From positions 36,913 through 100,912 of the forward strand of contig CALWRI010000002.1 in assembly GCA_944383905.1 (NCBI GenBank): a DNA stretch of 64,000 bases, read 5' to 3'. The notes below the pieces were generated by a model. It was not told where the DNA came from. It searched no databases and saw nothing but the letters and a program-made list of their open reading frames with translations. Position numbers and translations under genes: made by a program. This document shows positions 5,997 to 16,405 of this stretch, in pieces (within the stretch, counting starts at the first letter, position 1; each line of letters opens with the position of its first letter). The DNA comes from an uncultured Christensenellaceae bacterium (lineage in GTDB: Bacteria; Bacillota; Clostridia; Christensenellales; UBA3700).

Positions 5997-7028
5997 TTAC
6001 CGTACGATTATCAATTTGAGAATAAGTGCGACGAAAGCGCCGACGCACGCCGCGACGGGGAACGTGAGCATCCAGCTCGTAAAGATCTTTTTCGCCCTTC
6101 CCCAGCGCACCGCGCTGACTCTTTCCGCAATACCGACGCCGATAATGCTCGACGAAACGACCTGTCCCGTGCTTATCGGTATGCCCGCAAACGAGCAAGT
6201 GAGAGCAACCGTTTCAGTCGCCACCTGCGCGGTAAACGACTGCATCGTACCCACTCTGTATATTTTTTTGCCGACGGCATATATCAGTCTGTATCCGCCG
6301 AACACGATGCCCGCCATTATCGCGACGGAAATGAGCGCGACTATCAGAAAATCGAATTGGTACGTCTCAATGTCCACGCCCTTGCATACGGCGAGCGTGA
6401 GCAGGTATATGCCCATCGTCTTCTGCACGTTGTTTATAGAAATGGACGTGCTCATTATCACGACGTTGACGACCTGTGCGACGCGGAAATACTTTTTCAC
6501 GCTCCTGTCGAGATAGACGCATACCGCCCTTGTTATCTTGTTGAGCAAAAAGCCGACCGTCATGCACAAAAGCGGAGTGAGAAAGACCATGAGGATGACC
6601 TTGAGACCGACCGCCGACCAGTTTACGCTCTGAAATCCGAAACAGGCTATCGCCGCGCCGACGAGCCCGCCGAGCAACGTGTGAGACGTGCTGTTGGGAA
6701 CGGATACGAGGACGCAGATCACCGACCAGATGAGAGCGGCTATCATCGTGGAAAGCATAAACACAAAGCCCGCTTTGGGATCCACGCTTTCGAGCGTCTC
6801 GCTGTACACGAGACTGCCGACCGTCCTCGCGACGCTGTCGCTTTTGAGAAAATAGCAGATGACTATGGGAGCAACGAGCATTACAACACCCGCAATGATG
6901 AGCGCGTATCTTGCTTTTATGGCACGGGTAGCCACACAGGTCGCGACGGCATTTGCCCCGTCGGAGAAACCCATGTAAAACGTATATAACATCGCAAAGA
7001 TCATCACAACGATTATGTACGCGTCCAT
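5997..7028 (-). CDS. inorganic phosphate transporter, PiT family
   Basis: Polytopic membrane ORF with GFSDGANAVAT and GIPISTGQVVSSSIIGVG motifs. I start it at MDAYIIVV (7028) rather than at the track start of 7094. Confidence 0.85.
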   Translation of the reverse strand: MDAYIIVVMIFAMLYTFYMGFSDGANAVATCVATRAIKARYALIIAGVVMLVAPIVICYFLKSDSVARTVGSLVYSETLESVDPKAGFVFMLSTMIAALIWSVICVLVSVPNSTSHTLLGGLVGAAIACFGFQSVNWSAVGLKVILMVFLTPLLCMTVGFLLNKITRAVCVYLDRSVKKYFRVAQVVNVVIMSTSISINNVQKTMGIYLLTLAVCKGVDIETYQFDFLIVALISVAIMAGIVFGGYRLIYAVGKKIYRVGTMQSFTAQVATETVALTCSFAGIPISTGQVVSSSIIGVGIAERVSAVRWGRAKKIFTSWMLTFPVAACVGAFVALILKLIIVR

Positions 7029-7062
7029 ATTTTCCGTCCCGCTTTTATCTTTTGACGCATTG

Positions 7063-7091
7063 ATTATACAATAAAAAACGATAAGATTCAA
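7063..7091 (-). promoter_or_regulatory. sigma-A-like promoter of the PiT-DUF47 operon
   Basis: On the minus strand: TTGAAT, a 17-nt spacer, then TATAAT. It lies about 35 nt upstream of the ATG at 7028. Confidence 0.55.
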
Positions 7092-7255
7092 CACCGTAAA
7101 CCCGTGCGTCGCCGTAAATATATTATATTATATTGCCGCAGCGCATCAAATACAATGCAAAATAACAATTATTTTATGGATTTTTCGGCGCAATGATTTT
7201 GTCGCGTTTTTAGACAAAGCGAATATTTGTCACCGTTGTCGTTAATTATTATTAC

Positions 7256-7277
7256 TTAATAATAATTGATAATAATT
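7256..7277 (+). repeat. 22-nt AT-rich element TTAATAATAATTGATAATAATT, identical to the reverse complement of 36341-36362
   Basis: Exact identity read by eye. It is embedded in tandem 10-mers (AATAATTGAT x2 at 7261-7280) with AATT phased every ~10 bp. Confidence 0.8.
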
Positions 7278-7601
7278 GATAATTAGATTACAGACGGCAA
7301 ATAATACGATTATTTTTTCGCACAAAGCGGCAAAATACAAACGACTCAACTTCATACAAACAAGCATATTTCGGTGTGAATACGCAGTGCACCACACCCT
7401 GTTTCCGAGCCCCTTGCTTCGCTCTGTTTGCATCTCTCGCAATCGGGATAAGTCGCCCCGAAGGGTGCTCACTTTGACAAAAAACTTTTAATTTCCTCGA
7501 TCGGGTCGGTGAATAACGAAACGGGACCCCTCGTGCGTGACTTGTATGTTAAAGACATTTTGCCCTCGTCTTCGCCTTGCGGACTTTTCAATGCAATCGC
7601 G

Positions 7602-7628
7602 AAAAAAACCGCAAGAAAATACCTTGCT
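7602..7628 (-). terminator. orphan terminator-like hairpin inside a gene-free gap
   Basis: On the minus strand: GCAAG-gtatttt-CTTGC, then GG and T7. No gene upstream of it can be assigned. Confidence 0.4.
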
Positions 7629-7895
7629 CGTTCAAAAAACTTTTTACTCTCGAGCCCTCTCTACTCACGTTGTCTTTGCCTCACGGCTTCATCTGCAAGG
7701 TTCGCTCTCTTTTGACCGAATCTTCGCGCTGTTTCTGCTATTTTCCGTCTTCCCGCGCCGACTTGCCGTCGCAACGTGCGACTCATCTTTTGCCGGTTCT
7801 TCCCCTGCGCTCCTCCGTCGACATTTTCTTTTTTACCTTTCACGCTCAACATCGACGTTTTCCGTTTCTTCTCTCGGCTTTCGTGGTTTGATTGC

Positions 7896-7924
7896 AAAAA
7901 AAAGGCTCCGCCGTCTGCGGAGCC
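7896..7924 (-). terminator. rho-independent terminator of the TrpB-like gene
   Basis: On the minus strand: GGCTCCGC-agacg-GCGGAGCC followed by T8, 20 nt downstream of the stop at 7944. Confidence 0.8.
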
Positions 7925-7943
7925 TTGAACTCTTATTATTTGA

Positions 7944-9338
7944 TTATCCTCTTACGCCAGCGTTTTGAGGAATGTCGGGCAAACTTGCAAATCCCGCTTT
8001 GAGATCGTTGTCCGTCGGAATGAAGTCGGTCATCGTCTTGTCGTTGAACGCCTTGTATGCCGCCATATCGAAGTAACCCGTGCCCGTCAGACCGAACAGT
8101 ATCTTCTTGTGCTCGCCCGTTTCCTTGCATTTGAGCGCCTCGTCGACGGCGACTCTGATAGCGTGCGAAGATTCGGGTGCAGGCAGTATACCTTCGCATT
8201 TTGCAAACATCTCTGCAGCCTCGAAAACCTTGGTCTGTTCGACGCTTCTCGCGGTCATATAGCCGTCGTGATACAGTTTGGAAAGTATCGGGCTCATGCC
8301 GTGATAACGGAGTCCTCCCGCATGGTTGGGAGAAGGCAGGAAGCCGCTGCCCAGCGTGTACATTCTCGCAAGCGGGGTCGTCTTGCCCGTGTCGCAGAAG
8401 TCGTAAGCGTAAACGCCTCTCGTAAGCGAAGGACAGCTTGCGGGTTCGACCGCGATGAACTGAATATCGTTTTTGCCTTCCAGCCTATCCGCCATAAACG
8501 GAGCGATAAGTCCCGCAAGATTGGAACCGCCGCCCGCACAACCGATAACGAGATCGGGGGTGACGCCGTATTTGTCGAGCGCCGCTTTCGCCTCGAGACC
8601 GATGACGCTCTGATGAAGCGCGACATGGTCAAGTACGCTGCCGAGGACGTATCTGCAATTGGGCGTCGAAGTAGCTACTTCGATCGCTTCGGAGATCGCG
8701 CAGCCGAGCGATCCGCCGGTATTGGGGTGCTCCTTGAGAATGGCTCTGCCGACCTTGGTCGTCTCGGACGGAGACGGTATTACCTGCGCGCCGTAAGTGC
8801 GCATGACCTCTTTGCGGTACGGCTTCTGTTCGCTTGAAACCTTGACCATATACACTTTGAGGTCTATGCCGTAAAACGCGCACGCCATGGAAAGCGCCGT
8901 ACCCCATTGTCCCGCGCCCGTTTCGGTGGTAAGAGAGGTTATGCCTTGTTCTTTTGCATAATACGCCTGCGCCACAGCGCTGTTGAGTTTGTGAGAGCCG
9001 GAGGTGTTGTTGCCTTCGAATTTGTAATAAATCTCCGCGGGGGTGCCCAGCGCCTTTTCAAGCTCGTAAGCTCTGACGAGCGGAGACGGTCTGTACATCT
9101 TGTAAAAATCGCGTATTCCTTCGGAAATATCGATATATTTATCCGTGCTGTTGAGCTCCTGATCTATGACTTTGTCACAGAACACGGGACGAAGATCGTC
9201 CTTCGTGCACGGCTTGAGCGTCGCGGGATTGAGGAACGGATCGTGCTGTTCCTTCATGAACGCCTTGAGGTTGAGCCATTTTTTTGGGATCTCTTCCTCT
9301 GGCAGATATATTTTGTACGGTATTTTATCGTTTTTCAT
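7944..9338 (-). CDS. TrpB-like PLP-dependent enzyme (tryptophan synthase beta-chain-related, TrpB2 type)
   Basis: 464-aa ORF containing YYKFEGNNTSGSHKLNSAVAQAYYAKEQG (PLP lysine motif) and GCAGGGSNLAG. The long N-terminal extension is typical of TrpB2. No trpA gene is adjacent. Confidence 0.85.
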   Translation of the reverse strand: MKNDKIPYKIYLPEEEIPKKWLNLKAFMKEQHDPFLNPATLKPCTKDDLRPVFCDKVIDQELNSTDKYIDISEGIRDFYKMYRPSPLVRAYELEKALGTPAEIYYKFEGNNTSGSHKLNSAVAQAYYAKEQGITSLTTETGAGQWGTALSMACAFYGIDLKVYMVKVSSEQKPYRKEVMRTYGAQVIPSPSETTKVGRAILKEHPNTGGSLGCAISEAIEVATSTPNCRYVLGSVLDHVALHQSVIGLEAKAALDKYGVTPDLVIGCAGGGSNLAGLIAPFMADRLEGKNDIQFIAVEPASCPSLTRGVYAYDFCDTGKTTPLARMYTLGSGFLPSPNHAGGLRYHGMSPILSKLYHDGYMTARSVEQTKVFEAAEMFAKCEGILPAPESSHAIRVAVDEALKCKETGEHKKILFGLTGTGYFDMAAYKAFNDKTMTDFIPTDNDLKAGFASLPDIPQNAGVRG

Positions 9339-9410
9339 AATATGATTCTCCTGTTATTTACGTTTTTGCGGCTTTGACCGAGCGCCGTAAGGCATTTGCG
9401 CAGCGACTAT

Positions 9411-9442
9411 AAAAAAATCGTTCGGCATAACATGTCAAACGA
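9411..9442 (-). terminator. candidate attenuator hairpin plus U7 in the TrpB-like leader
   Basis: On the minus strand: TCGTTTG-11 nt loop-CGAACGA (7 bp including one G.U pair), followed by ATTTTTTT. Confidence 0.45.
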
Positions 9443-9446
9443 AATA

Positions 9447-9485
9447 CTACCGCGAACGCCATCGCGTAAAATATGCTGAATTCAT
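9447..9485 (-). CDS. candidate 12-codon leader peptide MNSAYFTRWRSR
   Basis: ATG lies 6 nt after GAAGGAGAAG. The peptide has one Trp codon and its stop is 5 nt before the hairpin. It is too short for the ORF track. Confidence 0.3.
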   Translation of the reverse strand: MNSAYFTRWRSR

Positions 9486-9556
9486 GTCTGTCTTCTCCTT
9501 CTTTTCTTGTCTTGTCTCAACCAGCAAATCCACTAGGATCCGCTCGGTATGATATT

Positions 9557-9585
9557 ATATTACATTATCTTTTGCGCGTTGTCAA
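9557..9585 (-). promoter_or_regulatory. sigma-A-like promoter of the TrpB-like gene
   Basis: On the minus strand: TTGACA, a 17-nt spacer, then TAATAT. This leaves a ~210-nt leader. Confidence 0.55.
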
Positions 9586-9613
9586 CGCATTTCAAAAACA
9601 AAATCCGCGTTTT

Positions 9614-10768
9614 TCAGTTTTTCGTATAATATCTCGTCATCAGTACGAGCTGTATGTCCGAAAGCTCTATTTCGTAAGTTACGTTGCCCTCGTCGTCGGG
9701 CTCCGAAGGCGTTACTTCCCAGAAATTGCCGTCGTTGTAGCTGCCCGTGCCGAGATCCTGACCGTTGAATTTGAGATATATATTGTTGAAGAACTCCGAT
9801 ATTTTGTTGAGCGCGCCTTTTGACTTCCAGAATTCTGCCTCGCTATTTAACTCGGTCAGAACGGGACTTTCGTTTATCTGCTTTTCGTATTCGTCGTATT
9901 TCTCCTTGTCGAGCAAGTTGAGCACGTTCATCATTCTCCCGTAATACTCGGTCATCGCCGCGTATCTCAAAAGGTCGTTGTCGCTGTTTATCAGGACGTA
10001 AGTCGCGACGAGGTTGGCGTCCTCCTCCCTCATAATGCCGATAGAATGTGCCATTTCGTGCGCAGTCGTGAATATCTTGTCGCACAGCGGAGCCTGCTCG
10101 TTTACGTTTGCTTCGCCTATCGGCGTAAAGGTGATCCCTATGAGATACAGCTCGCTCATAAGCGGCGAAAACGCCATGCCTTTCGCAAGCGGAACAAAGT
10201 CGCAATAATAGTCGTCGGTAAGTTTTTCGTATTCCTTGCGTATGAGAGCGGACAGATCCTCGACGCTTCCGCCGTAAACGGGCACGCCTTGCTCGTCTCT
10301 TTCAAGCGAGTAAGCAACGTCGAGAAAATCCGCCATGAAATTGTCTATCGCTTCGAGCTGTTCTTCCTGCGAAAGCTCTCCGTTGGCGTAAATATCGAGA
10401 GGAGGCTCCTCCCTGTTGTATGCGAACGACGTGTCGAGCATATACACCGACACCACGCAAAGCACCGTGGCGACGAGTGTGGTAAACGAACACAATCCTG
10501 CGGAAAACCTGCGTTTTGCAAGCATGACTATACATCTGATTATCAGAAAGAGCGCGGCTACGACCGCAATGCAGACAAGCAATTCGAAAAGAGAAAACGG
10601 GAGCGCAGAGGACAGTCTGCCCAGCGACGAAGTCAACGCAAACGTGACGGCGCGCGTCGCCTTTTCGCTTAAAGCGACGTCCCTCGAAAGAACGGCGACG
10701 ACAACGATCAGTACGATCGCAAGCGCCGCGCAAATACCGTTGAATATCATCCTGCGCCTTTCTTTCAC
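9614..10768 (-). CDS. DUF3810-family membrane-anchored putative zinc metalloprotease
   Basis: 384-aa ORF with N-terminal TM helices and GITFTPIGEANVN...TTAHEMAHSIGIMREEDANLVA (an HExxH motif). The start may be GTG at 10768 or ATG at 10750. Confidence 0.75.
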   Translation of the reverse strand: MKERRRMIFNGICAALAIVLIVVVAVLSRDVALSEKATRAVTFALTSSLGRLSSALPFSLFELLVCIAVVAALFLIIRCIVMLAKRRFSAGLCSFTTLVATVLCVVSVYMLDTSFAYNREEPPLDIYANGELSQEEQLEAIDNFMADFLDVAYSLERDEQGVPVYGGSVEDLSALIRKEYEKLTDDYYCDFVPLAKGMAFSPLMSELYLIGITFTPIGEANVNEQAPLCDKIFTTAHEMAHSIGIMREEDANLVATYVLINSDNDLLRYAAMTEYYGRMMNVLNLLDKEKYDEYEKQINESPVLTELNSEAEFWKSKGALNKISEFFNNIYLKFNGQDLGTGSYNDGNFWEVTPSEPDDEGNVTYEIELSDIQLVLMTRYYTKN

Positions 10769-10787
10769 AACAGCCTCTCAATGCGTT

Positions 10788-11519
10788 TCAAACGCGCTTT
10801 TCTTTCTCTTTTCCGTCGACATTCTCCGGGGCGGAAGCCTCGTCTTTGTCGTCATTTTCCCCGTCCGCGTCCTTCCTTCCGCCGTTTTCGCCAAAGCCGT
10901 CGAAGACGTCGCCTTCGACCTTTTCGATCTTTGCCTCGCTCTTTACATCGTCGCCACCGACGGACGTGCGCGAGCGCCTGTCACCGCCGACGTATTTCGT
11001 GACTATCCTGCCCATATTGACGAAGACGAGCCGATAAAGCGGATCGTATACGCAAAAGCACGCAAGCCCGACGAGCATAAACAGCGGGAGCGTCCAGTCG
11101 ACGCCGAACAGATCTATATCTGCGATCACGATTTTCATAAGCGTAAGACAACCGTAAAACGCCGCCGAGAAAAAGCCGAGTTTGAAGACGGTTATCATCG
11201 CTATTTTGCACCACTTGGGAAGTCTGACCTTTTTGTAGAATACGAAGTCGAGCGCATACTGAATTATCGAATACGGCGCGTAAAACAAGATGAACGGCAA
11301 AGCCTTCACGTTTACGATGAGAAAACATATCACGCCCGAAGCGACGTAAGAAAAAACAGCTCCCCCCACGGACTTCTGCGTGAGAGGAAGCGATATTGCG
11401 AGCGCCGCGATCACGTTTATCGCAATGCTCGCCGCGGAGACGTACGCCTGCGCCACGACCGCAATGACCGCGAGCGCGCAGGATACCGCCGCAAGAGCTA
11501 TTTTGTAACTGCGTCTCAT
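10788..11519 (-). CDS. polytopic membrane protein with an acidic C-terminal tail, function unknown
   Basis: 243-aa ORF with about 5-6 hydrophobic helices, then a tail rich in D/E/K/G. Its start is 1 nt after the J-protein stop. Confidence 0.6.
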   Translation of the reverse strand: MRRSYKIALAAVSCALAVIAVVAQAYVSAASIAINVIAALAISLPLTQKSVGGAVFSYVASGVICFLIVNVKALPFILFYAPYSIIQYALDFVFYKKVRLPKWCKIAMITVFKLGFFSAAFYGCLTLMKIVIADIDLFGVDWTLPLFMLVGLACFCVYDPLYRLVFVNMGRIVTKYVGGDRRSRTSVGGDDVKSEAKIEKVEGDVFDGFGENGGRKDADGENDDKDEASAPENVDGKEKEKRV

Positions 11520-11520
11520 T

Positions 11521-12174
11521 TCAGCAGCAAGGGATGAGATCCCCGCCCATCATTTCGCAACAGCAGTCGCAACAGATAAGAGTCGAACAGGTGTTGCAGC
11601 AAGCGGTCGACGTATCGGGACCGGCGTCGGATTGCCCGGGTCTCGCATAGCCGCCCCTCTGCCGTCCGTAAGGATTTGCCGTTTCGTCCGCGGAATTGTT
11701 CGTGGTCGTGCCGGCATTGTTGATAAGAGCGGTCAACTTTGAATGACTCGTCTTGTACTTTTGATTCTCGGGGTCGAGAGTCATAGCGATCTCGAGCTGT
11801 TTTTTACTTTCGACGTGCCAGTTTCTTTTATAATATATTATCGCCTGAACGTAATGCCATTCCGCGTCGCGGCTTTCCGCCATATCGAGCCTTGTCTGCG
11901 CCTCGTCCAGCTTTCCCTGCCTGATCAGTTCCTCGACGGGAGCGAGCCTGCTTGCGTTCTCCGAGACGGAAACGCGATTTTGAAGATCGTCGAGACAATC
12001 CGCATACGCCCTGTCGATCTCTCCGAGCGCACGGGTAGCCTCCGCGCCTTCTTCGCCCTCTCTGAAGCGCAGTTCTTCGTATTTGCGGCGCAACGCGCGG
12101 TAGGCGTTTTCCACCTGTTCCTGCGTGGCATCGTTTTTGAGTCCGAGCACTAAATACGGATCTTTTGCTTGCAC
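11521..12174 (-). CDS. J-domain protein with a TPR-like middle region and a C-terminal cysteine string
   Basis: DPYLVLGLKNDATQEQVENAYRALRRKY is a DnaJ-type J-domain start. The C-terminus is ACCNTCSTLICCDCCCEMMGGDLIPCC. I prefer the GTG start at 12174, which overlaps the upstream gene by 25 nt. The track start at 12300 would overlap it by 151 nt. Confidence 0.75.
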   Translation of the reverse strand: MQAKDPYLVLGLKNDATQEQVENAYRALRRKYEELRFREGEEGAEATRALGEIDRAYADCLDDLQNRVSVSENASRLAPVEELIRQGKLDEAQTRLDMAESRDAEWHYVQAIIYYKRNWHVESKKQLEIAMTLDPENQKYKTSHSKLTALINNAGTTTNNSADETANPYGRQRGGYARPGQSDAGPDTSTACCNTCSTLICCDCCCEMMGGDLIPCC

Positions 12175-13025
12175 TTGTCGGTCCTCCTTAAAATTCTGTC
12201 CGTCTGCTCTTTCAGACCGTACCAGACGACGTTTGTCACTACGCCTTCGTATGCCTTGAGCTTTACGTTGTCGAACGAGTTGTTTATCTCTTTTAGACAA
12301 CAGTTGAGAATAAACGCGGCGTCTTCGCCCTTATCCCTGACGAAAGAAGCTCTGTCTTTATATTCGTAGCCCGTCAGAAAGACGTTGAATTCCTTTTTCT
12401 TCGCGTCCTCGTCCGCATCGTCGTACGCGTCGGCGAAATAAACCCACCTGCCGAGGTTGTACATCATGTTTCCTGCCGCCTCGCTGTAATCCTCTTTCGC
12501 AAGGATACGCGTGAGTTCTTTGAGTATCGTCGCAAACTGATGCGCGATAAGGTCCTCGTTTTCGCAGCGTTCCGATTCCAGCCTGCCGAGCTCCTCGTAT
12601 CCCGTCCTGACGATCTCTGCGATTTCCGGGTTTCTCTTGCGCGCCTTTTTGAAATGGCGCTTTATCACAAGCGCGTCCGCCGCCTTCTTACCCGCGCTCT
12701 TGTCGTCGTTGACGTCGTCCGCGGCTTTGTAATGAGCGAGTATCGTATTGACGTCCGCTATCCCGAGCATCAGAGGAGTCGGTTTTATCACGGATTTTTT
12801 TCTGACGGGATTGAGTATGCACCCCTCGTTTTTTATCTCCGTCTTTTCTCCCGTGAGCGCGTGCAGAAACACGCTGAAAAACGTCATGTCGTAATTCGTC
12901 GTCAGTCTCATCAGCTGACCGCACCTTTTGCCTATGCACTTGCACAGACCGCAGTAAAACGCGCGGTACAGCGTAAAGTCCTTGACAAACATATTGGGCT
13001 TGTCTGGGATAACGTATCCGAACAT
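12150..13025 (-). CDS. DUF5685-family protein
   Basis: 291-aa ORF. The N-terminus MFGYVIPDKPNMFVKDFTLYRAFYCGLCKCIGKRCG matches the DUF5685 signature as I recall it. The ATG shares 1 nt with the trpS stop (TAATG). Confidence 0.7.
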   Translation of the reverse strand: MFGYVIPDKPNMFVKDFTLYRAFYCGLCKCIGKRCGQLMRLTTNYDMTFFSVFLHALTGEKTEIKNEGCILNPVRKKSVIKPTPLMLGIADVNTILAHYKAADDVNDDKSAGKKAADALVIKRHFKKARKRNPEIAEIVRTGYEELGRLESERCENEDLIAHQFATILKELTRILAKEDYSEAAGNMMYNLGRWVYFADAYDDADEDAKKKEFNVFLTGYEYKDRASFVRDKGEDAAFILNCCLKEINNSFDNVKLKAYEGVVTNVVWYGLKEQTDRILRRTDKCKQKIRI

Positions 13026-14023
13026 TACATCACGAATCCTATCTTTTCTTTTACTTCTTTCAGCGTTTTTTCCGCAATGGCGGAAGCTCTCTCTGCGCCG
13101 TTTTTCGCAACCTTGAGGAGATAGTCTTCGTCACCCCTGATACTCTCGAAGCGCTCTCTGAAAGGACGGAGCATTTCGACCACGGCGTCCGCTGTAGCGA
13201 GTTTGAGATGGCCGTACATCTTGCCTTCGAATTCCTTTACGAGAGAATCCATATCCTGCTTGCGCGCGATGGAAAGTATGGTGAGAAGATTGGACACGCC
13301 CGGCTTGTTTTCGGGGTCGTAAATTATCTCCGAACCGCTGTCGGTCACGGCTCTCTTTATCTTTGCGACGATGTCCTTCTCGCTGTCGAGCACTCCTATG
13401 ACCGCGTTGGGATTGGGGTCGGACTTGCTCATCTTTGCGAGCGGATTCTGCAAGCTGGCGATCTTTGCGCCGAACTTCTTGACTCTCGCTTCGGGCACCG
13501 TAAAGGTGTCGCCGTATATATTGTTAAAGCGCAGCGCAATGTCTCTCGCGATCTCGAGATGCTGGCGCTGGTCTATGCCTACGGGCACGCTGTCGGTCTT
13601 GAAAAGCAGAATGTCCGCCGCCATAAGCACGGGATAATCCATGAGCCCCATATTTATATTGTCCGCATGTTTTTCGGATTTTTCCTTGAATTGGGTCATT
13701 CTGTTCATTTCACCGACGTATGTGTAGCAGTTGAGAAGCCACGACAGTTCGCTGTGCTCGTGAACGTGCGATTGGAAATATACTATATTCTTGTTTTCGT
13801 CTATGCCTGCCGCCAGAAGAAGCGCAAACATATCGAGAGAGTTCTTGCGAAGCGCGGCGGGATCCTGCCTCACCGTAATCGTATGCAGATCGGCGACCTC
13901 GAAGATACAGAAATTGCCCTCCTCATTCTGCATTTCGCTCCACTCGTTTACAGCGCCTATATAGTTGCCGAGAGTCATGATGCCGGTGGGTTGGATGCCG
14001 CTGTAGATCACCTTTCTTTTCAT
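13025..14023 (-). CDS. trpS: tryptophan--tRNA ligase
   Basis: 332-aa ORF with YSGIQPTGIMTLGNYIGA (HIGH region) and KMSKS (AKMSKSDP). Confidence 0.92.
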   Translation of the reverse strand: MKRKVIYSGIQPTGIMTLGNYIGAVNEWSEMQNEEGNFCIFEVADLHTITVRQDPAALRKNSLDMFALLLAAGIDENKNIVYFQSHVHEHSELSWLLNCYTYVGEMNRMTQFKEKSEKHADNINMGLMDYPVLMAADILLFKTDSVPVGIDQRQHLEIARDIALRFNNIYGDTFTVPEARVKKFGAKIASLQNPLAKMSKSDPNPNAVIGVLDSEKDIVAKIKRAVTDSGSEIIYDPENKPGVSNLLTILSIARKQDMDSLVKEFEGKMYGHLKLATADAVVEMLRPFRERFESIRGDEDYLLKVAKNGAERASAIAEKTLKEVKEKIGFVM

Positions 14024-14196
14024 TGCTTAACCTCTAAAAAAGATATTTGCAATATTATAACACAAATATAACCTTACTGCAAAGATTTTGCGCTCAAGTT
14101 TGGGGATTTTGCCCTTTTGTTACCTTATTTTTCAAAATTTTATCACGCGAGCGTTAAAAACGCGTTAAAATCACGCGCAAAAGCGGTTTTCCCCTC

Positions 14197-14225
14197 TTTA
14201 CACGAGCGCCCCGTTTTTGTATAAT
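14197..14225 (+). promoter_or_regulatory. sigma-A-like promoter placed for a leaderless dGTPase-like mRNA
   Basis: TTTACA, a 17-nt spacer, then TATAAT. The ATG (14232) starts 7 nt after the -10 box and has no SD. Confidence 0.55.
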
Positions 14226-14231
14226 AAAACC

Positions 14232-15236
14232 ATGGAAGATTACAAAAAGACCGTTTACGAAAAAGAAGCAATGTTTTTCAGTCCCTACGCCTGCCGTTCG
14301 GACGCAAGCAAAGGCAGAGTCAGGGAGGAAAAACCCTGTCCTCTCCGCACCGATTTCATGAGGGACAGAGACCGCATCGTGCACAGCAAGTCTTTCCGCC
14401 GTCTCAAACACAAAACGCAGGTATTCATATCCCCAGAAGGCGATCATTACCGCACGAGACTGACGCATACTCTCGAAGTGGCGCAGATAGGCAGGACGAT
14501 AGCGCGCGCTCTCAATCTCAACGAGGATCTGATCGAGGCGATCGCGCTCGGACACGACCTCGGACACACGCCTTTCGGACACGCGGGCGAAAGCGTGCTC
14601 GACAAACTGATCGAAGGCGGCTTCTCTCACAATGAACAGAGCCTGCGCATCGTCGAACTTCTCGAAAACGACGGCAAAGGACTCAACCTGACGTTCGAGG
14701 TCAGAGACGGCATTGTAAATCACAAATTCAGCGGAAAACCCGCAACTCTCGAAGGCGAGATAATAAAATACGCGGACAGGTTCGCATATATCAATCACGA
14801 CATCGAAGACGCGATCTGCGCGGGCGTACTCAAAGAGTCGGAGCTTCCCAAAGACTGCACGGAGCTTCTCGGTCACAGCAAGAGCGCGAGGATAAACAGC
14901 CTGATACTCGACATAGTCGGCAACAGTTACGGCAAACCGTTCGTAAAGCAGTCTCCGGACTTTGAAGCCATGCACCTCAAGCTGCACAGATTCATGTTTG
15001 AAAGCGTGTACACCAACCCTATCGCAAAGGGAGAGGAAAAGAAAACGCTCGCGCTTATCGAGCTGCTCTTCGATCACTACATGAAAAAGCCGGAAGAACT
15101 GCCCGCCTTTTTCCGTTCTCTGCTCGAAACGACTCCCCGCGACCGCGTCGTCGGGGATTATATCGCCAGCTTTACCGACAGATACGCCGTGCGCACCTTC
15201 CACGAGATATTCACTCCGAAAGGCTGGAACGTATAA
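14232..15236 (+). CDS. dgt: deoxyguanosinetriphosphate triphosphohydrolase-like HD-domain protein
   Basis: Contains RTDFMRDRDRIVHSKSFRRLKHKTQVF and HTLEVAQIGR...GHDLGHTPFGH. I prefer the ATG at 14232 over the TTG at 14217. Confidence 0.88.
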   Translation: MEDYKKTVYEKEAMFFSPYACRSDASKGRVREEKPCPLRTDFMRDRDRIVHSKSFRRLKHKTQVFISPEGDHYRTRLTHTLEVAQIGRTIARALNLNEDLIEAIALGHDLGHTPFGHAGESVLDKLIEGGFSHNEQSLRIVELLENDGKGLNLTFEVRDGIVNHKFSGKPATLEGEIIKYADRFAYINHDIEDAICAGVLKESELPKDCTELLGHSKSARINSLILDIVGNSYGKPFVKQSPDFEAMHLKLHRFMFESVYTNPIAKGEEKKTLALIELLFDHYMKKPEELPAFFRSLLETTPRDRVVGDYIASFTDRYAVRTFHEIFTPKGWNV

Positions 15237-15263
15237 GATTTTCGCTTGTTCACCGAACAAAAC

Positions 15264-15296
15264 GACGGACGGGCAAAAGCTCCGTCCGTCTTTGTT
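15264..15296. terminator. bidirectional terminator between convergent dgt and ilvE
   Basis: GACGGACGG-gcaaaagct-CCGTCCGTC, flanked by T-rich runs on both strands. Confidence 0.7.
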
Positions 15297-15349
15297 ATCT
15301 CACAATGAAAACGCCGCCCTTGCGGACGGCGCTCTTTTTGTTTGTCGCG

Positions 15350-16405
15350 TCAGTTTATCTGAGTGACCCAGCCGAATTCGTCGGCGTATTTTTCCTGCTG
15401 TATACCCGTGATCTTGTCGTAAAGGAACGCGGTTATCTCGCCCATCTTGCCGCCGTTGACGACCATATCTTTGCCCTTGTAGCCGATAACTCCGACAGGA
15501 GAAATGACCGCCGCGGTGCCCGTGCCGAAACACTCGCGGAGCGTGCCGTCTTCGTATGCCTTGACGACCTCGTCGATCGAGATCCTTCTCTCGCTCGCCT
15601 TGTAACCGTACTTTTTGAGCACCTCGAGACAGCTCTTTCTCGTAATTCCGGGAAGAATACTGCCGACGAGCTGCGGAGTGACGACTTCGTCGCCTATCAC
15701 GAAAAAGATGTTCATACTGCCGACTTCCTCGACATACTTGTGCTCTTTGCCGTCAAGCCAGAGCGCCTGATCGTAACCGAGCGCGTTCGCCTTTTCGCCG
15801 CCGAGCAACGAGCAAGCGTAGTTGCCCGAGCATTTCGCTTCGCCCGTACCTCCGATGAACGCTCTGACGAGAGTGTCCTCGACGAGGATCTTCGTGGGTT
15901 CGAGACCGTGAGCGTAATAGGAGCCGACGGGAGAAAGAATGATGCAGAAAACGTATTTTTTGCTTGCGTGCACGCCGAGCACTTCTTCGTTGGCGAACAT
16001 AAACGGACGGATATAAAGCGCGGTACCAGGCTTTGTCGGGATCCATTCGCTTTCCAGCTTGAGGAGTTCGAACAACGCGGGTTTGACGACGTCTGCGTCA
16101 AACTGCGGCATGCACATTCTCTTTGCGGAATTGTTCATTCTGACAAAGTTGTCGTCGATACGGAAAACGGTTATCTTTCCTTGCTCGTTCTTGTACGCCT
16201 TCGCGCCCTCGAAAATGCTCTGCGCATAATGCAGTACGTTTGTGGCGGGAGCCATCGGGAAAGAAGCGTAAGGCACTATCTCGGGCTCTTTCCAAGCGCC
16301 GTTTTCGTATTCCATCACCAGCATATGGTCGGTGAAATACTTGCCGAAGCCGAGTTTGGTAAAGTCGGGTTTTTGCTTCAAAACTTGAGATCTGGTTATC
16401 TTCAT
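15350..16405 (-). CDS. ilvE: branched-chain amino acid aminotransferase
   Basis: Contains MKITRSQVLKQKPDFTKLGFGKYFTDHML and the GTGAAKCSGNYA-like stretch GGTGEAKCSGNYACSL. The ATG at 16405 is preferred. Confidence 0.9.
   Translation of the reverse strand: MKITRSQVLKQKPDFTKLGFGKYFTDHMLVMEYENGAWKEPEIVPYASFPMAPATNVLHYAQSIFEGAKAYKNEQGKITVFRIDDNFVRMNNSAKRMCMPQFDADVVKPALFELLKLESEWIPTKPGTALYIRPFMFANEEVLGVHASKKYVFCIILSPVGSYYAHGLEPTKILVEDTLVRAFIGGTGEAKCSGNYACSLLGGEKANALGYDQALWLDGKEHKYVEEVGSMNIFFVIGDEVVTPQLVGSILPGITRKSCLEVLKKYGYKASERRISIDEVVKAYEDGTLRECFGTGTAAVISPVGVIGYKGKDMVVNGGKMGEITAFLYDKITGIQQEKYADEFGWVTQIN

Follow-up and report, generated by a model that had tools for sequence, protein, structure and literature searches.

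A conserved DUF5685, cysteine-tail and membrane protein trio in Clostridia that may attach lipid to a bacterial protein

Results

Genes encoding a DUF5685 protein, a protein with a C-terminal cysteine tail and a small membrane protein form a module that is conserved across Clostridia. We found no paper describing this trio; it is unstudied, and its role may be the attachment of lipid to a bacterial protein. In the window, the 64,000-nucleotide stretch of DNA analysed here, the module sits in a composite cluster of five genes, preceded by the promoter-proximal housekeeping gene trpS and followed by a DUF3810 gene found there only in this genus.

The five open reading frames lie head to tail on the minus strand at the positions reported in an earlier note on this DNA, neighbouring genes overlapping or lying 1-19 nt apart. 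The stop codon of trpS and the start codon of the DUF5685 gene share the sequence TAATG, the gene for the cysteine-tail protein (hereafter the J-like protein) overlaps the end of the DUF5685 gene by 25 nt when counted from GTG 12174, the ATG of the membrane protein gene lies 1 nt past the J-like stop codon, and the DUF3810 gene begins with GTG after a gap of 19 nt, which matches the junctions described in that note. Judging from its position 7 nt after AGGAGGA, GTG 12174 is most likely the start of the J-like gene. TTG 12300, which would give the longest open reading frame, is a less likely start, as it adds 42 residues found in no homologue. A single good promoter precedes the cluster, a TTTGCA-18-TATAAT site with a TG extension (14054-14083, minus strand; 10/12 matches, extended -10) that leaves a short leader of ~25-30 nt upstream of trpS, and an Rfam search of positions 7000-16000 returned neither a T-box nor any other family. 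The cluster had been described as free of internal terminators. Strictly, a terminator-like hairpin followed by U6 is present within the membrane protein gene (11360-11389, minus strand; dG -18 kcal/mol, z -2.5), although it is probably incidental, since it is retained in the nearest species only and overlaps conserved codons.

The gene pair of DUF5685 followed by a cysteine-tail protein is found in 79/80 Christensenellales loci, and separate counts gave 12/12 in the same genus, 5/5 in the same family and 19/19 at the order level, the last leaving out one locus interrupted by a run of N. In the phylum sample the pair occurs at 27/29 loci, or 27/28 testable ones, the two exceptions being a contig end and one true orphan. 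The membrane protein gene follows the J-like gene at 59/80 Christensenellales loci and 14/29 phylum-sample loci. As the trio is syntenic far beyond the lineage of the window, we regard it as a real functional unit; of the neighbourhood proposed earlier as one module it is this part that recurs in the phylum sample, while DUF3810 and trpS are lineage-specific.

The trpS gene (13025-14023, minus strand; tryptophan-tRNA ligase; TIGR00233, 359 bits; PF00579) is the sole copy found in the assembly. It lies directly upstream of DUF5685 at 77/80 Christensenellales loci and at 0/20 loci from other orders and classes, and is thus a lineage-specific neighbour outside the conserved module, with a linkage seen only within the order Christensenellales. 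The suggestion that the downstream genes hitch-hike on an essential tRNA ligase is supported within this order only. At the other end, the 384-aa DUF3810 protein (9614-10768, minus strand; PF12725, 195 bits, E 3e-57) has 3-4 N-terminal TM segments followed by a domain containing HEMAH (residues 237-241; 10046-10060, minus strand), features of a putative membrane zinc peptidase. Its gene adjoins the module in 12/12 genomes of the genus, and adjacency is limited to that genus: elsewhere in the family DUF3810 is located on contigs other than that of DUF5685, and in a sample of 401 genomes the two occur together about as often as chance would have it (6 observed, 5.1 expected), with no case of adjacency. 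DUF3810 is therefore a genus-specific passenger, a neighbour without demonstrated connection to the trio, and its earlier placement within the module is not upheld.

The J-like protein (217 aa; 11521-12174, minus strand) ends in the tail CCNTCSTLICCDCCCEMMGGDLIPCC (11524-11601, minus strand), which places 10 Cys among its last 26 residues and is better conserved than any other region of the protein. At least five Cys occur within the last 30 residues in 156/157 DUF5685 partners, 101 of the 157 end in Cys-Cys, and the tail motif hardly varies even where two partners share only about 30% identity over the rest of their length. The tail occurs in a J-TPR-tail or a TPR-tail arrangement, the latter in J-less partners such as L196 and P0261, or fused to DUF5685 itself, as in 3/3 genomes of one order, where His, Cys and Asp abound in the fused tails (HHHHDCCCDCCDCDD...). 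The constant genomic partner of DUF5685 is thus the C-terminal cysteine tail and not the J domain. In the J-less lineages DUF5685 has a PF00348 polyprenyl synthase (E 3e-39 to 3e-49) as its direct neighbour or no more than 6 kb away (3/3 genomes of the order with the fusion and three further genomes), whereas no PF00348 gene was found within 8 kb at any of ~135 J-linked DUF5685 loci. An A24-like membrane peptidase homologue is also present in the fused-type operon.

Upstream of the tail, the J-like protein contains a TPR-like helical hairpin (residues 104-137; 11764-11865, minus strand; PF07719, E 0.002, below threshold) with conserved W106, W119 and N137. Stimulation of Hsp70 by J domains requires the HPD tripeptide. 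In alignments of J-like orthologues EEL (12070-12078, minus strand) replaces HPD in the window copy, the tripeptide is absent from 78/79 Christensenellales partners of DUF5685, and the Pfam DnaJ match falls below threshold (22.5 versus 27.8 bits). The J domain is therefore degenerate, and recruitment of DnaK, which the earlier note had proposed, is unsupported for the window copy. More distant orthologues retain KYHPD, and in some lineages the partner of DUF5685 has no J domain at all. Given this degeneracy, the role of the TPR/J-like body in the lineage of the window is probably DnaK-independent.

DUF5685 (291 aa; 12150-13025, minus strand; PF18937, 256 bits, E 4e-76) has no TM segment and is predicted to be a soluble enzyme with an isoprenoid-synthase fold (trans-prenyltransferase or class I terpenoid synthase). 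When its AF2 model (pLDDT 91, pTM 0.90) was compared with the PDB using Foldseek, isoprenoid-synthase-fold enzymes dominated the list and the first twenty matches were all trans-prenyl synthases or MoeN5. The best was the polyprenyl synthase 4jxy (E 1e-3, TM 0.57), with the prenyltransferase MoeN5 at TM 0.55-0.61, and further matches included octaprenyl-, GGPP- and hexaprenyl-diphosphate synthases, UbiA-type prenyltransferases and a class IB terpene synthase. These matches to the helical fold of trans-isoprenyl diphosphate synthases (PF00348) and MoeN5 are moderate (TM 0.5-0.6), with none below E 0.001. The PF00348 profile fails to detect DUF5685, hhalign against polyprenyl synthases is not significant (probability 0.8%, E 0.07), and a profile search of PDB sequences returned designed helical repeats only.

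Two acidic motifs of DUF5685 sit where isoprenoid diphosphate enzymes bind Mg-diphosphate. The first, DDVND (residues 103-107; 12705-12719, minus strand), lies on the helix equivalent to that of DDxxD in polyprenyl synthases and aligns with it in the non-significant hhalign alignment, in which the second, DAYDDADED (residues 199-207; 12405-12431, minus strand), is collinear. Invariant residues of the family include D103 and D107, D199, D203 and D207 at spacing i, i+4, i+8, and N214, and all of these are kept in divergent J-less homologues (E 1e-25 to 1e-43 versus the DUF5685 profile). In contrast to PF00348, the second motif has the form DxxxDxxxD rather than DDxxD, and the motifs are 96 aa apart as opposed to roughly 130 in the aligned polyprenyl synthases. 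Genomes with DUF5685 carry separate bona fide polyprenyl synthases. The metal- or thiol-type motifs reported earlier, YCGLCKCIGKRCG in DUF5685, the 10-Cys tail of the J-like protein and HEMAH in DUF3810, are all present, although within YCGLCKCIGKRCG (residues 24-36; 12918-12956, minus strand) only C25 and C28 are invariant while C30 and C35 vary. C69 is also invariant and H55 near-invariant, and these four residues could form a metal site. The isoprenoid-synthase-like nature of DUF5685 had gone unnoticed in the earlier note.

The third protein of the module (243 aa; 10788-11519, minus strand) is a small polytopic membrane protein with a ~180-aa core of 5-6 helices and a variable acidic tail, and has no Pfam or NCBIfam match. 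Its AF2 model (pLDDT 81) gave nothing significant against PDB folds. The best shape match, and the only compact one, was the ECF S component RibU (3p5n, 5kbw; TMt 0.44-0.54), which is alike in size (~180 aa) and number of helices (5-6), but the resemblance falls short of significance (E 3-5, probability 0.28) and no ECF A/T genes are located nearby.

Discussion

Our tentative reading, to which we attach somewhat less than even confidence, is that DUF5685 works as a ComQ-like prenyltransferase with the cysteine tail as its substrate. DUF5685 would bind and ionise a prenyl diphosphate (e.g. FPP or GGPP) supplied by the cell's polyprenyl synthase, which is encoded in the same genome, and would prenylate at least one cysteine of the tail, which is carried on a long flexible linker, as an analogue of ComQ acting on the adjacent ComX with Cys rather than Trp as acceptor. 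Lipidation would keep the protein at the membrane, perhaps at the membrane protein encoded with it, and in ancestral forms that had HPD intact a DnaK co-chaperone would thereby be placed there. Constitutive transcription of the cluster would be supplied by trpS.

In ComQ/ComX of Bacillus and PalQ/PalX of Paenibacillus, an enzyme of the isoprenoid synthase superfamily prenylates a peptide of its own gene cluster (PMC10853753, PMC5331326, PMC13290415). The superfamily to which ComQ and PalQ are assigned (PMC10853753, PMC13290415) is the one that dominates the Foldseek list of DUF5685. Characterised trans-IDS-like peptide prenyltransferases all target tryptophan and none targets cysteine (PMC13290415). 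DUF5685 resembles ComQ and PalQ in its Asp-rich motifs, its (predicted) isoprenoid-synthase fold and its location beside a protein bearing a presumed C-terminal acceptor. Unlike them, it would use cysteine and carries at its N terminus an additional module of ~80 aa that contains three invariant Cys, and it has no significant sequence similarity to ComQ or PF00348. Its partner is a folded protein of 200 aa rather than a short precursor peptide, with a tail that is highly conserved and not polymorphic.

Eukaryotes lipidate J-proteins and -CC termini, as in farnesylated Ydj1/DNAJA, the palmitoylated cysteine-string protein DNAJC5 and RabGGTase substrates ending in -CC, using alpha-alpha-barrel Zn prenyltransferases or DHHC acyltransferases. 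By analogy only, the J-like protein shares with Ydj1/DNAJA and DNAJC5 the architecture of J domain, flexible linker and C-terminal cysteine cluster, its cysteine density recalls the string of DNAJC5, and the frequent Cys-Cys ending recalls Rab-type termini. However, the eukaryotic enzyme folds are unrelated to that of DUF5685, the tail has no CaaX box, and the window copy lacks HPD.

Several observations count against prenylation: the moderate fold match and non-significant profile link to polyprenyl synthases, the lack in the tail of Trp, the residue that characterised enzymes use, the near-invariant non-Cys tail residues (D, E, GGD, L, I), and the fused form, since an enzyme is not usually joined to its own substrate; nor does prenylation need the three invariant DUF5685 cysteines. 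The near-invariance of the non-Cys residues and the composition of the fused tails suit a metal-binding fold no less than a lipid anchor, and perhaps better. Alternatively, then, the tail may fold round metal ions or an Fe-S cluster and form, together with Cys25, Cys28, Cys69 and possibly His55 of DUF5685, a metallochaperone or electron-transfer module, with DUF5685 making or modifying a small-molecule lipid and not a protein. We consider this somewhat unlikely. Those Cys and His residues are missing from canonical prenyl synthases, the non-Cys tail residues are almost invariant across orders, His/Cys/Asp richness is typical of metal binding, fusions of enzymes to cofactor-binding domains are common, and J-proteins serve Fe-S transfer elsewhere (HscB/Jac1). 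Yet Mg2+ suffices for class I isoprenoid-fold enzymes, the tail has no match among known metal-binding families, its position after a long, flexible and variable linker and its strictly C-terminal Cys-Cys ending recall lipid-anchored proteins, and the adjacency of hyp genes to the fused form is not conserved.

It is improbable that the modified tail is cut off and exported as a ComX-like signal or antimicrobial, with the J/TPR body as a large leader, the membrane protein as exporter and, in this genus, DUF3810 as processing protease. The ComX and PalX products do derive from the C-terminal part of their precursors (PMC10853753), a putative membrane HExxH peptidase accompanies the trio in this genus, and the fused-type operon contains the A24-like homologue. 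Pheromones and bacteriocins usually diversify, however, whereas this tail hardly changes from one order to the next. What would be the leader is a folded, conserved protein of 170-190 aa, no ABC exporter or immunity gene is present, the membrane protein has no transporter match, and DUF3810 is unlinked outside one genus. Still less probable is the model of the earlier note, in which the four proteins other than TrpS constitute one membrane-associated, DnaK-dependent assembly or quality-control machine. The tight packing of all five genes throughout the genus, the presence of DnaK in the genome and the HPD of distant orthologues are in line with it, but the loss of HPD here and in close relatives, the J-less partners and the separate location of DUF3810 in the family's other genera argue against it, and it leaves the isoprenoid-synthase fold and the polyprenyl-synthase neighbours unexplained. 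Finally, we give very little credence to the genes being functionally unlinked and merely compressed in a small (1.7 Mb), gene-dense genome. The lineage-specific linkages of trpS and DUF3810 fit such packing, and for these two genes alone the explanation stands; for the trio it is already contradicted, because the pairing of DUF5685 with the cysteine tail is retained in different orders and classes, in some genomes even as a fusion.

A DUF5685 gene and its cysteine-tailed neighbour form a conserved unit

By ORF listing and direct reading of the sequence we found five co-directional genes on the minus strand of the window: trpS (13025-14023; TIGR00233, 359 bits), a DUF5685 gene (12150-13025; PF18937, E 4e-76), a gene encoding a protein with a J-like, TPR-like and cysteine-tail architecture (11521-12174), a membrane protein gene without a family in Pfam or NCBIfam (10788-11519), and a DUF3810 gene (9614-10768; PF12725, E 3e-57). 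The tight packing that the earlier note described, with shared or overlapping gene ends, was borne out in both coordinates and junctions, and the metal- and thiol-type motifs that it quoted are all present. The stop codon of trpS and the start codon of DUF5685 share the sequence TAATG, the membrane protein gene begins 1 nt past the stop of the J-like gene, and DUF3810 follows after a further 19 nt. For the J-like gene the most plausible start codon is a GTG at 12174, 7 nt 3' of AGGAGGA, which gives an overlap of 25 nt with the end of DUF5685; an alternative TTG start at 12300 was rejected, as it would add residues found in no homologue. These spacings and overlaps are compatible with a single five-gene operon.

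The earlier note had described the five genes as one operon and suggested that the four partners of trpS may be a module hitch-hiking on its transcript. The genome is a Christensenellales MAG whose nearest named relatives are 'Candidatus Ornithoclostridium', and within the same genus the order of all five genes is kept, being complete in 11 of 12 loci; in the twelfth, a contig end inside DUF5685 cuts off trpS. Other genera of the same family retain trpS, DUF5685, the J-like gene and the membrane protein gene in that order, with DUF3810 on other contigs. In a set of 80 loci taken from named Christensenellales assemblies, the J gene comes after DUF5685 in 79 and trpS immediately precedes DUF5685 in 77; the membrane protein is present in 59 and DUF3810 in only 12. 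In other families of the order the DUF5685/J pair occurs in 19 of 19 usable loci, with trpS often displaced or absent and no DUF3810 within 8 kb of the pair.

At the level of the phylum, DUF5685 was found in 50 of 401 sampled genomes (about one in eight), as well as in most Christensenellales sampled, and the gene for the J/TPR/Cys-tail protein lies immediately downstream in 27 of the 29 best DUF5685 loci of the 401-genome sample. One of the two exceptions is a contig end and the other a true orphan. DUF3810 scored above the cut-off in 41 of the 401 genomes; the two families co-occur in 6 genomes versus 5.1 expected under independence, and in the other five of these six DUF3810 is not adjacent to DUF5685. 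Based on these counts across genus, family, order and phylum, we limit the conserved unit to DUF5685 and the Cys-tail protein, which the membrane protein usually joins, with trpS an order-level and DUF3810 a genus-level neighbour. The pairing of DUF5685 with the J-protein thus stood, while the inclusion of DUF3810, and with it the five-gene module as one unit, did not. We found nothing tying DUF3810 to the trio outside this genus, and the two should not be functionally tied in annotation. A literature search returned no published description of the core trio, with DUF5685 appearing in one paper, as no more than a list entry, and no mention of DUF3810 or of a J domain and cysteine string combined in Clostridia.

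In the orphan genome (L079:383-1276, L233:1468-1977), DUF5685 is followed by a convergent gene, and a J-TPR homologue located elsewhere has no HPD and only 2 Cys; the system in this genome is apparently decaying. In one genome of the order an additional TPR-like paralogue, lacking a J domain and with a Cys-rich end, is encoded directly after the membrane protein gene (L046:6384-6818). An apparent DUF5685-J fusion at locus L040 was discarded, since it stems from a run of N translated as XXXXXX.

DUF5685 is predicted to adopt an isoprenoid-synthase-like fold

The PF18937 match (256.5 bits versus a cut-off of 26.7) spans residues 1-276 of the 291 in the window protein, which has no hydrophobic segment. 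Alignment of 54 homologues revealed three invariant cysteines (C25, C28 and C69) and two acidic regions: K100, D103 and D107 are invariant within and beside DDVND (103-107), as are Y189, Y196, D199, D203, D207 and N214 around DAYDDADED (199-207) and the FN that follows it. The i, i+4, i+8 spacing of D199, D203 and D207 resembles the pattern of the metal-binding triad of class I terpenoid synthases.

An AlphaFold2 model of DUF5685 is all-helical (pLDDT 91, pTM 0.90), and its Foldseek matches in the PDB are dominated by isoprenoid-fold enzymes, the first twenty being trans-prenyl synthases or MoeN5 and the remainder mostly further enzymes with that fold. The top match is the polyprenyl synthase 4jxy (E 1e-3, TM 0.57; Foldseek probability 1.00 for the best), followed by the MoeN5 prenyltransferase (TM 0.55-0.61), by octaprenyl-, decaprenyl-, GGPP- and hexaprenyl-diphosphate synthases, by UbiA-type prenyltransferases and by a class IB terpene synthase. 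The matches lie at TM 0.5-0.6 with none below E 0.001, and the fold is predicted rather than solved; with that reading of the scores, the model points to an isoprenoid-synthase-like all-helical fold for DUF5685. In hhalign, DDVND and DAYDDADED are collinear with two aspartate-rich motifs, the FARM and the SARM, the second motif of DUF5685 being non-canonical. Despite this collinearity, alignment to 32 polyprenyl synthases was not significant (probability 0.8%, E 0.07) and so provides no sequence-level proof of the link, and Pfam detected neither PF00348 nor any family other than DUF5685 in the protein. A profile search of PDB sequences with the DUF5685 alignment retrieved designed helical repeat proteins only, which we regard as spurious.

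The cysteine tail is the best conserved region of the partner protein

In the partner, a J-like domain and a TPR-like hairpin are followed by a variable low-complexity linker and by a C-terminal tail with the consensus C..C..L.C.DCCCE(C/M)MGGDLI.CC. The tail is the best conserved region even where partners are only ~30% identical elsewhere: at least 5 Cys occur in the last 30 residues of 156 of 157 partners and a CC end in 101 of 157, a set that includes some genomes twice and holds 121 unique sequences. In the window copy the tail is a cysteine string, with 10 Cys in 26 residues. When the 43-residue tail was searched against 1.84 billion representative proteins, 18 matches came back; the readable ones belong to the same J/TPR family, as members, as variants with no J domain or as fragments. 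Several of the matches are short, with unrelated N-terminal parts, and may be mis-assemblies, leaving no clear evidence for the tail as a portable tag on other domains.

The J-like domain itself has diverged. Distant orthologues keep KYHPD and carry PF00226, while the window copy has KYEEL in its place and falls below the cut-off of that DnaJ profile (22.5 bits versus 27.8). The HPD tripeptide, which in J domains lies between helices II and III, is present in 33 of the 121 unique partners overall and is absent from 78 of the 79 Christensenellales partners, the trpS-linked clade, which have variable residues instead. The genome encodes a DnaK of its own; as HPD is required for stimulation of Hsp70, its loss leaves a link of the window protein to DnaK unsupported, against the suggestion that its J domain recruits DnaK, and the protein should not be named a DnaK co-chaperone in annotation. 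Compared with the cysteine-string protein DNAJC5, which has a functional J domain and an S-acylated string, the window copy has the dense Cys string and a degenerate J domain; no homology is implied.

The membrane protein of the trio was modelled with 5-6 long helices and a disordered acidic tail (pLDDT 81). Pfam and NCBIfam returned no family for it at E values up to 10, and no PDB fold matched significantly, its sole compact fold matches being RibU-type ECF S components (E 3-5). In DUF3810 (194.6 bits to its family), 3-4 TM segments at the N-terminus accompany a HEMAH domain; no solved relative was found by sequence, the HExxH gave only an Astacin match below threshold, and the protein may plausibly be a membrane zinc peptidase.

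J-less and fused loci link DUF5685 to the tail and to polyprenyl synthases

Of five weaker-scoring DUF5685 loci, four have no J/TPR/Cys-tail neighbour and the fifth has a J-less tail partner, and the Cys and Asp signatures of DUF5685 are kept in all five. The partner at locus L196, 123 aa long, consists of TPR and tail and has no J domain, an architecture also seen in the metagenomic protein P0261. In one low-GC order, DUF5685 itself carries at its C-terminus a fused tail rich in His, Cys and Asp in 3 of 3 genomes (L198:1501-4012, L231:7205-10134, L232:8001-11029). The enzyme and the tail are thus associated in three architectures, and from the J-less partners and fused forms we conclude that enzyme plus cysteine tail is the constant association.

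The fused form heads a conserved operon of four genes, in which it is followed by a ~150-aa TM protein, a polyprenyl synthase (PF00348, E 3e-49) and an A24-peptidase-like membrane protein of 140 aa. Two other genomes (L193:5757-8969, L195:5805-9005) have a DUF5685 that lacks a Cys tail and is followed by a conserved ~165-aa protein of no family, with genes for a polyprenyl synthase and a DUF2232-like membrane protein running convergently towards the pair; in a third, a polyprenyl synthase lies 6 kb from DUF5685. As such genes number 1-5 per genome in the 1.5-7 Mb genomes of the phylum, we estimate the chance of adjacency at ~2% per genome. DUF5685 has, in these genomes, an independent genomic link to prenyl-diphosphate supply; no polyprenyl synthase occurs within 8 kb at any of the ~135 J-linked loci. 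Between the membrane protein of the trio in the window and those at J-less loci, no homology was detectable. A neighbourhood of hyp genes beside the fused form was dismissed as coincidental, as it is not kept in the other two genomes. At L195, a Cys-rich-tailed ORF was seen 6.5 kb away from the DUF5685 pair (932-1423).

A possible cysteine-directed protein prenyltransferase

In the ComQ/ComX and PalQ/PalX systems, an enzyme of the isoprenoid-synthase superfamily modifies a peptide that the same gene cluster encodes (PMC10853753, PMC5331326), and all characterised members target Trp (PMC13290415). As in ComQ-type systems, where the acceptor gene adjoins that of the enzyme, DUF5685 has the Cys-tail gene immediately downstream at nearly all loci; whereas the acceptor of those systems is a Trp near the C-terminus, the tail here is Cys-rich and the last 80 residues of the partner hold no Trp. 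On the reading proposed below, the trio would belong with the isoprenoid-fold peptide prenyltransferases that have an adjacent substrate, among which a Cys-directed enzyme of ComQ-like type would be new. Tentatively, we propose that DUF5685 might use a prenyl diphosphate to alkylate the tail cysteines, by which the partner would become membrane-anchored, possibly at the membrane protein encoded with it. More doubtful is the fuller scheme of S-prenylation in Clostridia on a terpene/prenyl-synthase fold, unlike the alpha-alpha-barrel of eukaryotic protein prenylation, in which DUF5685 would lipidate the tail of a J/TPR chaperone adaptor that acts at the membrane and, here, independently of DnaK.

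The main rival is a reading in which the tail and C25, C28 and C69 of DUF5685 bind a metal and the enzyme makes a small-molecule lipid; we consider this rather improbable. Still less likely are a secreted ComX-like product, the four-protein DnaK machine of the earlier note and the absence of any functional link.

If prenylation by DUF5685 is true, this would be the first cysteine-directed ComQ-like enzyme and the first case in bacteria of an endogenous protein prenylated for a housekeeping instead of a pheromone role, extending bacterial peptide prenylation from tryptophan pheromones to the cysteines of a folded, conserved cellular protein. Membrane anchoring of J-proteins would then have evolved convergently with the eukaryotic cases, and a function would be assigned to a DUF found across the phylum and in a gut lineage. 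Should the tail be a metal site instead, DUF5685 would represent a new cofactor-dependent branch of the isoprenoid-synthase superfamily.

Expression signals of the array

A promoter, TTTGCA-18-TGnTATAAT, lies upstream of trpS (14054-14083); internal promoter-like sites are weak only, and the next good promoter (9557-9585) is that of the downstream TrpB-like gene. The earlier note's view that the array has no internal terminator does not strictly hold, as one terminator-like hairpin followed by U6 is located inside the membrane protein gene (11360-11389; dG -18 kcal/mol, z -2.5). As this hairpin is kept in the closest species only and overlaps conserved codons, we take it as incidental, though it could attenuate expression of the last two genes.

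The trpS gene is the sole copy found in the assembly. Its promoter and leader lie within 14024-14083, the leader being just 25-30 nt long without a T-box, and an Rfam search of 7000-16000 detected neither a T-box nor any other family. Although aminoacyl-tRNA synthetase genes of Firmicutes are commonly under T-box control, trpS therefore looks constitutively expressed. Just downstream of the array, the TrpB-like gene (7944-9338) is served by a separate promoter, TTGACA-17-TAATAT, and by a leader of ~210 nt with no Rfam family match, both within 9339-9585. Upstream, a divergent HD-domain dGTPase-like gene (14217-15236) starts ~140-150 nt from the trpS promoter and has its own promoter, TTTACA-17-TATAAT.
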